Source of the DNA: an uncultured Bacilli bacterium
GTDB lineage: Bacteria > Bacillota_I > Bacilli_A > RF39 > UBA660
Direction of reading: 5' to 3'
NCBI GenBank assembly: GCA_947625215.1
Contig: CANQNL010000001.1
Location: 10,122 to 74,121, forward strand
DNA: 64,000 nucleotides
Part shown: piece by piece, positions 42,001 through 48,000 of the stretch
How positions within the stretch are numbered: position 1 is the first letter of the stretch
Layout: every line of letters begins with the position of its first letter
Position numbers: made by a program

Positions 42001-45000
42001 AATATGTTTGGGTTAATGCATCTAAGCCAAGTAAAACTGGTGAATATGGGAAATCCTCTTCAACTAAGATATGCGTTTTTTTATTTAATGCTGATGCCCA
42101 ACCTAATTCTATATGTACACCTCCAGAAATACCATTTGAAGTATTATTTCCAGGTATCACAATTAAAAAATCACTATCTTTTAATGCTTTATAATCTCTC
42201 ATTGTACTTTCTTGAGGATTTTTATAATATTCTCCCCATTTTTCTTCACGAATAGCTAAATAACACTTATGACCTTTATTTTCTATTATAGAAATCAAAT
42301 TTAAGAAAAATGCTTTATATTTATCTTTTATTTCATATTTGTTATCGTTGCAAAGCCCAGAAAATGGACAAGATATAAATACTTTCATATACTAATTCTC
42401 CTTTAATTCGTTTTTAGAAAAATACATTTTTTTTGATAAGATTTTATTTGTTAATGATGTTTCTTGGATGCATAGATTGTCATTTATTCCACGACCTATT
42501 AATCTTCCATCAGAATTTATAAGTCTATGAAAATCGCTACCAACTGACGTTAATACATTATATTTTGCTGCTTGCTTTTGTAAAAATTCACTATCAGCAT
42601 AACTACAGTCTGATTGATATACTTCTATACCATCTATTCCTAGTGATATAAGATTTTTGATAATTGGCTCTACCTGTTCACGGCTTAATTTATATGCCAT
42701 TGGATGTGCAAAAACTACCAGTCCACCAGCAGTATGTATTCCATCAATTACCCTACTTACAGGTAAATCGTAATCAGTACCATAACTAAATCTATTAGTT
42801 TTAAAATATTGTTTATAATAGTTTATTACTTCCAGAGGAAAATACTCTTGTTCCATACATTTAATAACTTCTCTATCAAACCAACAATATTTTTCCATAT
42901 CCAAACTTGCAAGACTTTCTTCTGGTAATTTTTTTAATCTTTTTTGCAAAAAATTTAATAGTTCAATGTGAGCATTTAATCTTTTTTCTTTCATTTCAGT
43001 TAATAAAGTAACTAATTTTTCATTATTTTCATCAAATCCGTATCCTAAAATATGTAGCCTTATTTTTTGCCCGTTTTGAATTATATATGATGAAAATTCT
43101 ACTCCTTTTACACCTTTCATATCTTCATACAAATAATTTTGCAAAAATTTTATACCATTTATAGTATCATGATCTGTTATAGCTAATATTTCAGTATTAT
43201 TTTTATGAGCCATATCAACAACTTCATTACATGAAAACATACCATCTGATTTATTTGTATGAATATGCATATCAATATATTTTCCCATAACCTTCACTCC
43301 TTTGATAAAAATTATACAAGTTTTATATCAAATTGACCAATATAGATTTTTTATACTCCATAAATTTTGTTTATAGCAAAAAAACAAATTCAAAACGAAT
43401 TTGCTAGTTACTATCTTTAAATATTTTTATAAATGCCTTAGCAACATCATTAACATATTTAGTATGATATGCTATACTAACAGGCGTTAAAACTTGATTA
43501 ATATCTACTTTTACTTCATATAATTTTCCGGATTTTAAATCATCTTTTATAAATTCTTTTATCATCCATCCAATACCAATACCTTGATTTATGATCCCTT
43601 TAGTAATTGATGAGGAATTAACTTCTACAAGAGGTTTTAAAATAACATTTTTTTCTTTAAAATATTTATCGATCATTTTTCTATTAGCAGTAGTAGAGCT
43701 TGGAAGGATTAAAGGATATTGATTCAAATCTTTTGGATCAAGTTTTCCTTTTTGAGAAATGTCTTTGTATTGATAATTGCAAACAAAGCAACTTTCTAGA
43801 TCAAAAACTTTTCTAACTTTTATTGTGTTATCATCAGGGATAGCCATATTGGTGTCAATAACTATATCTAATTCTCTTTTTATAAGCATATTTAACATTT
43901 CATCAGATTTTTTATTGATAATATTAACTTTTACATTAGGATATATTTGATTGAAGAGTTTTAAATAATTTACAAAATAGAATGTTCCGATGTGTGTTGG
44001 AACACCAATATTTAAAACTTCTTTCTTAATATCATTTAAATCATCTATTAAATTTTTATTTGCCTCAACAAGTTCACATAAATGTTCTGCGTAATGATAT
44101 ACTAATTCTCCAGCTTTAGTTAATGAAATACCTTTTGAATCACGTTTAAAAAGTTCAACATCTAGCTGAGTTTCTAATTTTTTTATTGCATGTGTTACTG
44201 CTGGTTGGGATATATATAGTTTTTCTGAAGCTTTAGTAAAACTATTGTATTTTGCTACAATGTAAAAAGTTTTATATAAATTTAAATCAACATCGTACAT
44301 ATTAAATTAATCCTCCATTAATTACATAATATTATATACCAAAATATAACATTTTACAATTTAACTAATTCCTAGCTTCTTCTTATAAAAGAATTTGTAA
44401 TTCCTAGTAATATAGATTATATTTTTTTTGATATCATCATTATATTTGTGAACTTTTACAAAGAAGTTTCACTTTTATAAAATACATCATAATCTTCCAT
44501 ACATTATCCTATAAATTATCTATTTTTTATACTCCATAGGCCAAACCTATCCACTGGGCTGGACCAGACATATATGTACAAGCTGATTTGTTATGCGTAA
44601 GTACTCCAAACTTGCTGACATAATAACTATGATTATCTTTTACTGAAAGGTTATAAACTTTTGTGGTATCGACAAAATTAGTTTGGACATTTGTAATTAT
44701 AACTTCACCACCATCTATTGTTAATATTTTATCTCCTTTTTTAATTTCTTCAGCTTTTGTCCATCCCTTATTTATAACATAAAATGGATGTTCGTGAGTA
44801 CATTTTAATTCATTGTCATCGGTTAAATCTTTTGAATTATAATGACTTCCTATATTGTTAATATGAGAAACTAAATTTGAGTTCATTTTATTATTTTTCT
44901 CATATTTTATAGTTATAATTTCAGCTGATTTATTTATATATACTTCTTCTATTTCTTTTAACTCTGTCTTTTCTGATTTTTCATTATATGAATATACTTT

Positions 45001-48000
45001 TTCGCCTACTTTTATATCTTCAATATTTTTTAAACCATTTTCAGTAAGTACTTTAGTTTCACCAACAAAGCAGGCACCTGTAAGTGTTCCAAAAGCGTGA
45101 ACCTCATTATATCCATCAGATACATAAGCTGTAATAACATTATTTGGTGATCCAGAAAAAGTCTCAGATGTTTTGGTAACCTCTACTTTTCCAGTTGCGC
45201 CACCAGACCATTCATACCAACATTTATATCTTCCATCAGTGCATCCAATTGGAAATGTTATATATCCACTTGTCCCAGATACACTCACTACTGGAGCTTC
45301 TAAATTATTTGTTTTTATTGGACTAGATTCAGATTCTAATGTTTTGCCACCTTTGGTTACTTTAACTTGAAAATTATGTGAAGTATTATGCGCTATTTCG
45401 TTAAAAGTATAAACATTATTTTTACCGTTATTTATATAATCATCATTATCTTTTTTAAATTCATATGTAGCCCCGCTTATTTTTGTCGCTGTTAGAGTTA
45501 TTGAGTTAGTCGTTATATCGGTTTCTAAATTTATGGTTTCTGGAAGTTGCGGCCTCATACCTTCCTGAACATAATCTAAAGTTATTGTAACTTCTGCTTT
45601 TAAATTATCAGGTTGCGTTGTAACTTCATCGCTATATGTGACTTTTACGCTTAAAGTAGCTGTGCTGCTGGCATTTAATGTATCACCTTCAGTTATTCCT
45701 GAAGTTACTATTTTTATATTTTCATTATCACTTTCACTAACATCGATGCTATCTAGCTGGGCATTAACATTTCCTTTATTTTCGACGGTTATATCATAAG
45801 TTATAGAATCACCAGGACTTACTAAATTAGCTTTAAAAGTAGCCTTTAAGTCATCTACTACTTGGGAATCTTCATCGGACGCCTTACCTACTATATCTTT
45901 ACTGGTAATACTTGTTATCTTAATATCCCAGTTACTGGTTATACTTGTAGTTCCATTTATATTTAAAAGTGTATTAAAAGCGGCATATCCAGCTGTCATA
46001 AGGAGCAGTACTGCACATAGCGAATAAATTATTATATTTCTCTTTTTTTGTTTTGACATAATTTTTCTCCTTACCTAGTCTAATCTATAAATATTATACC
46101 TTCTATCAATTGAATTTGGCAAGTAAATTCAGTAGTTTTATCAAATAATTTAAAATGTTATTTACTCTTATTTTTTAAACTTAGCGCATATATAAGTAGT
46201 GGGAACACGCATATTAATTGTGAATAAACAAATCTAAAATTTGCAGCCGTAACAAATATCATCATTACTAAGGTATTAGAAAGTACTAAAACAAATGGTA
46301 AATAGCTTGTCCATTGTTTTCTTTTTTTATATATTACTACAAATAATGAAAATACAATTATATATAAGCCTACTTCGACACTAAAAAATATATATTTTAA
46401 TGGTGATTGTGATAAAACATTTGAATATTGCGCTAAAAAATCAGAACAATGACTTAAAATAAATGAATTTGATGTTTTTGGCGGATTACTATATAAATTA
46501 TGTTCAGAATTGATTTGCCACCAAGGACTTGTAATATTCATATATGATATTAGATATTTGTCCGGATATTTTATACCATATTTAATATAGAATTTCATAA
46601 TTGCTTCAAAATTATTATTTACCCAATATGAATATATAGGATAAACATCCGAATCAAATTTTAAATAATCAACGGAAATATTATTATATTTTTCTTCCCA
46701 TTTTTCTTTGGGCGCTAATTGATCTAAAAGTTTTTGCTCAACCTTAGTAATAGGAATATTTTGGTGATAAATGTAGGCTATTTGATTAAATGGAACACCT
46801 ATCATTTCATCTTTACCACCCATAAAATCTACTTTTAGATTATGGTAAATAGGCCCATACAAAAGCAATCTAAATAAAATTAAACTAACTACCGTAATTA
46901 TATAAAATTTTCTTTTTTCTTTAAATAATATAATTAAGACTAAAAACATTAAAAATACATTAGCAATTCCATTATGCCTAAATAACATTATTCCAAGTGA
47001 AGTTAATATTAATAATATTTTATGACTGTTTTTATCTATCCACTTACCCTTACTAATTACTATTTCAATTAATAGTAATGTTCCTAAAAATAAACACCAC
47101 GTAAAGGGAATATCTTTTACTAAATATACAGAGGCTCTTAAAATCATTGGATTTAAGAGAATCAATAATAATACTAAAATTGTCCCTTTTTTATCTAAAA
47201 AATACTTTCTTAAAAAGCGGCAGAAATATAACAATATAATTCCTATAAAACATAACTGAAAAATTGCGCAGGATAGATAACTATCGTATAACAAAGTAGG
47301 AAATTTTATAAAAATTAAAGTATATATTAATGGATGCCAATTATTATAATTTCCACTATGAACCTCTTCCCAAACGGTTGTAGTATCTGGATCAATTAAC
47401 GCCGGAAATGAAGCACATAAAGCAAAGGAGAAAAATATTAATATAATAATTCCATATAACAGTAATTCTTTTTTATTAAATGGTACTTTTACTGACTTTA
47501 ATTTAACATTTAATATTTTAGGAAAAATTAAGTTTAATAAGATAAAGGCTATAAAAAATACAAGAATAATGGAAAACCAAGAAATACTTCCATTAGTAAT
47601 CCAGCAAATGGCAAACGAAAAATATAATGACAAAAATATTATCAGTATTTGCTTTAAAATATTTGGCTTATTTATAAAATACTTTCTTAATTTTTGAAAC
47701 ACAATTAATACTCCTTTACATTATTAATTTTCTTTTATAAGAAATTAACAAACATATTTTTCTTCGTTATATTCTTTTTCAGTATTAACATTCCATATAT
47801 TACTTTTATCTTTAACCTCATTTAAAATATTTTTAACTGTTTCAAATGATGTTATCATCGAATGATCCATATTATTGTATCTATGTTGTCCATTTCTTCC
47901 AACACAATATAGATTCTCATACTTATTTAAATATTTAATTAAATCATCGATCTTATCATAAGTATCGAAATACGCAGGATAAGCTTTTTTAACTTTTTCA

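Follow-up and report, generated by a model that had tools for sequence, protein, structure and literature searches.

What is an intact domain of a self-processing type doing at the very end of an exported protein, with no more than a short tail behind it? The question is raised by a pair of genes in a stretch of 64,000 nucleotides from an uncultured Bacilli bacterium (assembly GCA_947625215.1, contig CANQNL010000001.1, positions 10,122 to 74,121), referred to here as the window. The gene under study, paralog B (44527..46059), is an intact open reading frame (ORF) of 510 aa plus stop with an ATG start, and it lies on the minus strand, as do all features of B given below. Its partner, paralog A (30921..32468, minus strand, 515 aa), has the same architecture, and identical proteins are known for both (P0118 for B and P0120 for A), encoded on an NCBI contig of 96,726 bp. 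A first interpretation of B, made from the DNA alone and called here the sequence-only reading, had described it as a TasA-like protein with a Hint domain, the second of two paralogs of common architecture, in which conserved processing machinery would carry a variable payload or tail as in polymorphic Hint-containing secreted proteins. The Hint domain and the shared architecture have been borne out, and the TasA and payload parts have not. What emerges is a well-delimited Hint domain of the bacterial intein-like (BIL) or pretoxin-HINT type that is used without a toxin and ends an adhesin-like protein of uncultured small-genome gut Bacilli, along with two linked paralogs in which gene conversion can be seen clearly. 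The type of Hint is already known; what is notable, apart from the gene conversion, is its terminal, toxin-less position on an adhesin-like stalk.

The Hint domain and its short tail

The C-terminal domain of B (aa 330-490, 44590..45072) is, judged by its sequence and predicted fold, a real Hint domain of the BIL or pretoxin-HINT type, with every line of sequence and fold evidence pointing the same way. In Pfam, the PT-HINT family PF07591 matches B with 75.1 bits and A with 75.0 bits, against a cut-off of 27.7, and of the NCBIfam models for intein N- and C-termini, TIGR01443 (intein_Cterm) reaches 30.9 against a cut-off of 15.6 and TIGR01445 also matches. The closest solved structure by sequence is 2lwy, a BIL domain of Clostridium thermocellum (phmmer against the PDB, E 8e-15). 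The same entry ranks first by fold when the AlphaFold (AF2) model is searched with Foldseek (E 1.7e-11, template-modelling (TM) score 0.92, root-mean-square deviation (rmsd) 1.4 Å), followed by the Tetrahymena BUBL BIL2 domains 6y75 and 6tmm and then by many inteins and mini-inteins. Across the Hint region the model has a predicted local distance difference test (pLDDT) value of about 90. Residue by residue, both paralogs retain the full catalytic set, which in B consists of Cys330 as Hint residue 1 (45070-45072), the block B motif Thr421-x-x-His424 (Thr421-His-Glu-His424, 44788-44799) and the closing His489-Asn490 pair (44590-44595). The domain measures 161 aa, has no endonuclease insert, and is followed at position +1 by Lys in both proteins (Lys491 in B).

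BIL domains have been defined by the absence of a +1 nucleophile, a mini size without endonuclease and a host that is a non-conserved secreted bacterial protein (PMC7664689). The domain of B fits this description, with Lys at +1, its small size and a host that carries a signal or anchor helix and immunoglobulin (Ig)-like domains. Such domains work through an N-S acyl shift and Asn cyclisation, and when the +1 nucleophile is absent, N- and C-cleavage products predominate (PMC7664689); the title of the 2lwy paper, as it stands in the reference list of that article, refers to ligation without nucleophilic side chains. Compared with the A-type BIL domain of C. thermocellum, A and B agree in fold and sequence, in Cys1, TxxH and the terminal His-Asn, in the lack of both +1 nucleophile and endonuclease insert, and in being hosted by a variable secreted bacterial protein. 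They differ in that their Hint is effectively C-terminal, with just 20-25 aa beyond it, and that the host belongs to a different, uncharacterised surface-protein family; B also has a loop that 2lwy lacks (aa 385-417, about 30 aa, modelled with low confidence). A canonical (class 1) intein was considered and rejected: where Cys, Ser or Thr at +1 and a C-extein that continues a conserved host protein would be expected, B has Lys and a tail of 20 aa predicted to be disordered, and those homologues that lack the Hint stop at the junction or close to it.

Past the His-Asn pair, B continues with KSACTYMSGPAQWIGLAYGV (aa 491-510, 44530..44589; 20 aa, Lys at +1 and Cys at +4, which is Cys494) and A with KSACTYMTGAAEWRLLTYGISTDTA (25 aa). 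Alignment confirms the earlier observation that the two tails begin alike with KSACTYM and then diverge. The idea that they represent a variable payload, as in polymorphic toxins, does not hold up: the tails have 20-25 aa and are predicted to be disordered (pLDDT <50 in the AF2 model of B), no immunity ORF follows, and the homologues have tails of 6-21 aa that are unrelated in sequence (21 aa in P0002, 6 aa in P0003 and 8 aa in P0006). Past the Hint there is no toxin domain within the 20 aa of B or the 25 aa of A. An immunity gene is likewise missing 3' of B, where a 226-nt gap without any ORF of at least 20 aa leads to a LysR regulator, and 3' of A, where a terminator-like bidirectional hairpin (30837-30869) is followed by a small opposite-strand ORF rich in Gly and Tyr. 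Since its Hint is followed by neither a toxin domain nor an immunity gene, B does not count among the polymorphic toxins. There, the HINT domain sits directly before the toxin, whose release it has been proposed to bring about (PMC3482391). What A and B have in common with these pretoxin-HINT proteins is the top-scoring Pfam family, at 75 bits, and a Lys at +1 with a Cys nearby, as at the junctions of long-tailed relatives; unlike them, they have no toxin domain, immunity gene, RHS, filamentous-haemagglutinin or other delivery repeats.

To place this short tail among other Hint proteins, a HMMER scan with Hint plus tail was used, which returned 19,607 cluster representatives at E<=0.001; the tail statistics refer to the best 150 of them in which the His-Asn (HN) pair could be located. 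Among these 150 closest relatives, 47 have tails of 3-30 aa, and 93 have tails of >60 aa, which are counted as toxin-sized by length only, with no toxin-domain scan of those tails. Pilin-like N-terminal leaders are present in 10 of the 47 short-tail proteins vs 1 of the 93 long-tail proteins, and the short-tail group includes four members with the N-terminal motif of the A/B family. To go by the number of short tails and the pilin-like leaders enriched among them, a Hint that ends an N-terminally anchored surface protein and has no toxin behind it is an arrangement that recurs, rather than the outcome of decay in a single case. The pilin-like Hint class comprises P0108, P0110, P0111, P0136, P0198, P0200, P0240, P0253 and others. 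Its members combine a type IV pilin-like N-terminus (K-G-ITLIALVV... or G-FTLVE...) with Ig/FN3-like domains and a C-terminal Hint, beyond which there are only 5-9 residues, often with a Cys at or near the end.

Related Hint proteins commonly have a Cys at +2 to +4, as well as Lys at +1. Cys makes up 5.4% of short tails vs 1.2% of the background (p 6e-11), and just past the Hint it is enriched 4-5x whether the tail is long or not; in 46 of 147 relatives (31%) it stands at +2 past His-Asn (HN-x-C). The tails of A and B, which open with KSAC and so have their Cys at +4, conform to this pattern, and Lys is the most frequent +1 residue in long-tail Hint proteins. We know of no described role for the Cys of the post-Hint HN-x-C motif.

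The ectodomain and its family

The full-length AF2 model of B (mean pLDDT 85) shows an N-terminal helix (aa 3-31), a short linker of low confidence (aa 33-39), three beta-sandwiches (aa 46-165, 178-249 and 257-325), the Hint domain (aa 330-490) and a disordered tail (aa 493-510). The N-terminus (45979..46059) is a basic stretch followed by a hydrophobic helix, MSKQKKRNIIIYSLCAVLLLMTAGYAA, recognised by the AF2 helix and by residue conservation, and it would be either a Sec signal peptide, with a possible cut after GYA, or an uncleaved signal-anchor. In 104 homologues M21 and Y25 within this helix are nearly invariant, and so are L32, I34, G36 and T37 just past it (45949-45966); this is unusual for an ordinary signal peptide.

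Domain 1 (aa 44-165, 45565..45930) is predicted to be an Ig-like beta-sandwich with the DUF11/CLIPPER motif LVSPGDSITYDITVENKGN, and it represents the constant module of the family, common to about 100 homologues. Its profile scores lie near the thresholds, with 25.4 bits for PF24346 (DUF7507/CLIPPER_2; cut-off 27) and 19.9 for the DUF11 repeat TIGR01451 (cut-off 24); PF24346 is also listed for the protein cluster of B in a precomputed record. The AF2 model has a pLDDT of about 90 in this domain, and a separate model of aa 27-170 reaches 88. Lys76, a candidate for a Lys-Asp-Asn isopeptide triad, is not conserved in the family consensus. Domain 2 (aa 176-250, 45310..45534) is an FN3-like beta-sandwich according to the AF2 strands and to Foldseek matches with FN3 tandems, and it is here that A and B vary most. 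Domain 3 (aa 255-329, 45073..45297) is a further beta-sandwich in the AF2 model, with two Cys residues (FPIGCTDGRYKCWY), and ends at the N-extein junction ...GTLTGA; this module also occurs in longer relatives from loci L015 and L018 of metagenome-assembled genomes (MAGs).

The DUF11/CLIPPER and CLIPPER_2 domains are stalk domains of fibrillar adhesins (PMC12617251). Like them, Domain 1 has the PGDxITYxITVxNxG motif and a beta-sandwich of about 7-8 strands, and it is part of an extracellular stalk-like array; unlike them, it scores just below threshold and is present in a single copy, without tandem repeats. Besides PT-HINT, which is above threshold, the Pfam matches of B include Hint, Hint_2, AXH, Vint, DUF7507 and DUF7927, all sub-threshold, and a marginal StcE beta-sandwich, and the same scan recognised no wall-anchoring motif. 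As far as can be read from their sequences, A and B are exported, that is, secreted or membrane-anchored, adhesin-like surface proteins.

In a search space of 5.8 billion proteins, the full architecture was found in only three other clusters, P0001, P0002 and P0003, with 97%, 66% and 61% identity, respectively. A fourth protein, P0006, has the N-terminal module and the Hint as in B but differs from it in the middle. The Hint is absent from P0004, P0005 and P0007, paralogs from related genomes that match A and B domain by domain as far as the junction and finish in a Cys-rich end, P0005 exactly at the Cys that aligns with Hint Cys1. Because these three match A and B up to that point, the Hint seems to have been gained or lost at the junction. 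The longest contig given for P0005 has 53,159 bp, as does that of the Hint-bearing P0003; likewise, 36,888 bp are given for both P0004 and the Hint-bearing P0006. This suggests that each pair shares a contig. A further set of about 100 proteins matches only the first ~170 residues and then continues with DUF6273, DUF285/BspA-type leucine-rich repeats, Flg_new or CBM_X2.

The species-representative genomes that encode the N-terminal module are MAGs of gut 'Bacilli' and 'Tenericutes' that have not been cultured, and each carries many copies; 44 ORFs with it were counted in 22 of the loci fetched, and the longer family members have FN3-like and Cys-containing sandwich modules as in A and B. A scan of the genome contigs detected the N-terminal module only, with no close Hint-bearing orthologue in other MAGs, and a metagenome scan gave just two Hint matches, both distant. 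Searches for contigs that carry the exact sequence of B, P0002, P0003, P0006 or P0036 gave no match. Given the shared module, the varied heads, the Hint-less versions and the multi-copy MAG loci, A and B can be placed in a family of modular surface proteins, present in multiple copies in a lineage of small-genome gut Bacilli, and in this family the Hint is an optional C-terminal module. Identity between the RpoD of the window and that of MAGs under the label 'Bacilli bacterium', of which some have closed contigs of 1.3-1.5 Mb, reaches 93% at most. An all-vs-all comparison of the ORFs at 24 family loci revealed no dedicated processing partner, no neighbour being shared by more than five loci. 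As a separate observation on these loci, holA (DNA polymerase III delta) and an mgsA/rarA-type ATPase gene are adjacent in the window (8681-10821), and in a related 'Tenericutes' MAG (L018, 5007-9806) a 756-aa family member lies between holA and the mgsA/rarA-type gene.

What the Hint domain may do

By analogy with BIL domains, we lean towards self-cleavage by simple hydrolysis after export, so that the Hint would be a maturation module and no toxin would be released. Following export by Sec, Cys330 would attack the carbonyl of Ala329, and the N-to-S acyl shift would give a thioester, the resolution of which would free the three-domain ectodomain from the Hint; cyclisation of Asn490 would then cut off the tail. 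Since the first of these events would release the ectodomain and the second would remove the tail, the Hint could be seen as serving the maturation of the ectodomain once only and removing itself in the process. Several points weigh against this proposal. Plain hydrolysis offers no benefit for making and then discarding a domain of 160 aa, and in the Hint-less P0004, P0005 and P0007 the ectodomain evidently does without it. The Pfam match of Domain 1 falls narrowly under its threshold (25.4 vs 27 bits). Moreover, sequence cannot separate cleavage from splicing or transfer, and the mature protein may be released or anchored, depending on the N-terminal helix being cleaved or kept.

The cost of a discarded domain is what a transfer reaction of the Hedgehog or BUBL kind would account for, although we consider it rather unlikely here. 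A nucleophile would attack the Ala329 thioester, and the ectodomain would be joined covalently to a target through its C-terminus. The nucleophile may be an amine of the cell wall or of a lipid, a hydroxyl group of a glycan, a Lys or Cys of a host or partner protein, or Cys494 of the tail itself, and the purpose may be anchoring, polymerisation or covalent adhesion. A and B resemble Hedgehog and BUBL proteins in that the Hint closes the C-terminal side of a polypeptide that is exported and has its functional product in the N-terminal part, and BUBL BIL2 domains, which mediate conjugation, provide the second-best structural matches (6y75 and 6tmm). Transfer would make sense of a costly single-use domain on a protein without a recognisable wall-anchoring motif (Pfam scan) and of the thiols clustered past HN. 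It would also be consistent with the enrichment of terminal, toxin-less Hints on pilin-like, N-terminally anchored proteins and with the strong purifying selection on the Hint described below; the enrichment of Cys in short tails, including the +2 Cys of 46 of the 147 relatives, hints at a thiol relay. On the other side, A and B have neither the sterol-recognition region of Hedgehog nor a ubiquitin-like N-extein as in BUBL, and transfer by their Hint is hypothetical and argued by analogy only. No acceptor was found, and no conserved partner gene occurs near the family members; the Hint-less members share the N-terminal module, and anchoring is therefore not Hint-dependent; and the tails of P0003 and P0006 have no Cys.

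An extension of this alternative, which we likewise regard as doubtful, is that the terminal toxin-less Hints of the A/B family and of the pilin-like 'KG-ITLIALVV' proteins might form a distinct class that transfers the ectodomain C-terminus covalently, in a Hedgehog-like manner. Such a class might couple the ectodomain to the cell envelope, to another subunit or to a host molecule, and the nearby post-Hint Cys, here Cys494, might act as the thiol relay. If true, thioester transfer would allow gut Firmicutes to anchor surface proteins, polymerise them or adhere by covalent means, in a single turnover and without a sortase, and new protein-ligation tools could follow from it.

The self-cleavage proposal has also to be weighed against decay, in which a former C-terminal toxin has been lost and the Hint and its short tail are relics. 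PT-HINT is indeed the top Pfam family, the HINT of polymorphic toxins has a role in toxin release (PMC3482391), 93 of the 150 closest relatives have tails of >60 aa, long enough for a toxin (though without a toxin scan), the tail of one relative, P0109, is HNH-like, and the Lys at +1 with a nearby Cys (KSAC) is typical of long-tail junctions. Decay is nevertheless improbable. Both paralogs keep all catalytic residues, and the Hint has a ratio of nonsynonymous to synonymous divergence (dN/dS) of 0.11 at a dS of 0.27. The relatives P0002, P0003 and P0006, at 56-66% identity, are toxin-less as well, and this state is therefore old and stable. Downstream there is no immunity-like ORF and no remnant of a toxin.

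It is very unlikely that the tail itself is the payload, that is, a signal or antimicrobial peptide of 20-25 aa (KSACTYM...) set free by cyclisation of Asn490, with the divergence between A and B as functional polymorphism. C-terminal cleavage is known for BIL domains, and the tail diverges more than the Hint (dN 0.21, dN/dS 0.39). It is, however, predicted to be disordered, the tails of homologues have only 6-8 aa and are dissimilar, many related terminal Hints carry tails of 5-7 aa, and there is no linked transporter, immunity or receptor gene.

Least credible of all is a TasA-like fibre subunit of the camelysin/TasA fold, processed by SipW and assembled by donor-strand exchange: beyond being an exported Firmicute protein, B recalls TasA by a short A-AFN-like motif where the signal peptide ends (GYA-AFNT vs AAFND in TasA), and the TasA fibre 8aur does appear in the fold search with the aa 27-170 model, but at rank 43 with E=0.12 and an rmsd of 9.6 Å, on par with generic sandwiches, in a search that gave nothing below E 0.01. 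Peptidase_M73/camelysin (PF12389) and SipW-signal models gave no match at E<=1 in Pfam or NCBIfam, the profile of the N-terminal module found nothing in the PDB at E<=10, and no S26/SipW-type peptidase is present among the 45 ORFs of >=150 aa in the window that were scanned against Pfam. With four independent negative tests (Pfam, NCBIfam, fold search and PDB profile search) and no detectable relationship in sequence or fold, the TasA-like N-terminus of the sequence-only reading was rejected and is effectively refuted at both levels; in its place the DUF11/CLIPPER motif was found.

The two copies and the genes around them

At the protein level B and A share 449 of 510 residues (88%) in a gapless BLASTP alignment, and tblastn of the 64-kb window revealed no copies other than these two. 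They are direct repeats, 13.6 kb apart, each with its own, similar promoter-like site, which is TTGCCA-18 nt-TATAAT for B (46093..46122, 11/12 matches in a consensus scan) and TTGCTA-18-TATAAT for A (32501-32530, 10/12 matches); we infer that these TTGC(C/T)A-18-TATAAT sites are promoters. A ribosome-binding site, AAGGAG, can be read 7 nt 5' of the ATG of B (46067..46072) and is the same in A, and about 70 nt 5' of both ATGs, spanning promoter-like site and ribosome-binding site, are conserved between the two genes. The earlier interpretation had left room for one copy being a pseudogene, and this is excluded for both, as the ORFs are intact and all Hint catalytic residues, the promoter-like site and the ribosome-binding site are kept.

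The two genes are not uniformly diverged, and the long stretches of identical DNA that had been pointed out in them are real. An 83-nt string quoted in the sequence-only reading occurs exactly twice, at 45191-45273 and 31600-31682, and not at all in shuffled sequence. Pairwise alignment extends this to a perfect tract of 194 nt, the longest identical run of the pair (nt 787-980 of the coding sequence; B 45080-45273 = A 31489-31682), within a shared length of 1530 nt that contains 174 differences. When these 174 differences were placed at random in 20,000 runs, the longest identical run had a mean of 47 nt and never exceeded 116 nt. The central segment is variable, as had been noticed: codons 151-270 hold 33 of the 61 amino-acid differences, with a DNA identity of 74-83%.

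Divergence by region, calculated with the Nei-Gojobori method, gave a mosaic of dS from 0.08 to 0.70. The values of dS and dN/dS were 0.51 and 0.09 for Domain 1, 0.70 and 0.27 for the FN3-like segment, 0.08 and 0.23 for Domain 3, 0.27 and 0.11 for the Hint, and 0.55 and 0.39 for the tail, with a dN/dS of 0.17 for the whole gene. All parts of A and B are thus under purifying selection, and both copies therefore look functional and maintained. Positive or diversifying selection on the central segment, which its variability had called to mind, found no support, because a dN/dS of 0.27, at this coarse regional level, is relaxed and still purifying.

The three levels of dS and the 194-nt perfect tract indicate, from the alignment, repeated gene conversion on an old duplication, through which the copies would have been partly homogenised while the FN3-like segment and the tails drifted apart; the 194-nt tract is best read as the most recent conversion tract. 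The earlier remark that identical tracts allow gene conversion agrees with this mosaic and with a tract longer than chance. A caution applies, as the identical tract lies in a MAG-derived contig, where cross-talk between paralogs during assembly or polishing is possible. Evidence from other samples comes from two low-coverage contigs and is weaker than the comparison of A with B. The first, L025 (= P0001; ENA ERZ27249481; 1708 bp, 2.3x coverage), shows a single switch from B to A inside the 194-nt tract, no private differences in the region aligned with A and B, and a few odd sites in the final 17 nt of the contig; it was not counted as an inter-strain recombinant, since a clean single switch at 2.3x coverage is equally likely to be an assembly chimera. 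The second, L028 (= P0119; ENA ERZ27248994; 2185 bp, 1.8x coverage), has the 5' flank of B, segments in the order B-A-B-A and the 3' flank of A; a single private substitution falls inside the gene, and a few others lie close to the 3' end of the contig. Here one B-to-A junction falls between informative sites just 9 nt apart. Switching of a de Bruijn path (k>=21) needs an identical stretch of >=k-1 nt, so this junction should be present in real molecules; it is for the 9-nt junction only that L028 is counted as evidence, and to that extent it adds support to gene conversion.

Between A and B lies a twelve-gene cluster of about 12 kb (32572-44300, minus strand), which looks like a biosynthetic cluster for a cytosine-nucleoside natural product of the blasticidin/mildiomycin type, to judge from its gene content. 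It encodes a homologue of CMP (cytidine monophosphate) N-glycosidase (41915-42388; E 9e-20 to PDB 4jen, and also matching BlsM 5vto and MilB 4jem), a radical S-adenosylmethionine/SPASM enzyme with a weak BlsE-like match, a protein with a weak match to cytosylglucuronate synthase, two DegT-type aminotransferases, a methyltransferase, a FemAB-like acyltransferase, a PHP phosphatase, a LysR regulator, and an ABC-F protein and an APH-type kinase, the last two being possible self-resistance genes. Because A and B are direct repeats that bracket the cluster, recombination between them would remove the cluster, with a hybrid of the 5' part of B and the 3' part of A left behind, and could by such deletion switch the cluster on or off in a population. 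Both L025 and L028 have the layout expected of such a deletion product, the 5' part of B with its upstream flank being joined to the 3' part of A with its downstream flank; given their low coverage, they are candidate deletion products.

The small ORF that converges on A at the hairpin (30649-30834, plus strand) begins with a stretch rich in Gly and Tyr, contains a single hydrophobic helix (MYYYGGYQGYGCGNQCGGGYQGGGYGYGAGYGAAIILVLFILLVIIIG...) and has no NCBIfam match; by eye we take it to resemble the YjcZ-type tiny sporulation proteins, and it was also called on L028. On the other side, directly upstream of B, four minus-strand genes (46158-47702, 47745-49286, 49303-50841 and 50961-53141) probably form a cell-envelope glycan module. 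Two paralogous DUF6020 polytopic membrane proteins flank an oxidoreductase of the PRK07208 type (flavin adenine dinucleotide-dependent, 748 bits), and next to this group is a GT-C-like protein of 726 aa with a weak match to an XrtG-associated glycosyltransferase. They are followed by an ORF of 3263 aa (53349-63140, minus strand), the C-terminal 800 residues of which match the C-terminal region of the M26 IgA1-specific metallopeptidase (E 1e-41), so that it probably encodes a giant surface protease or adhesin. Near the other end of the window, two paralogous Amidoligase_2 proteins (10923-11957 and 13414-14466, plus strand) flank a thymidylate-kinase-like gene and an unannotated ORF of 268 aa.

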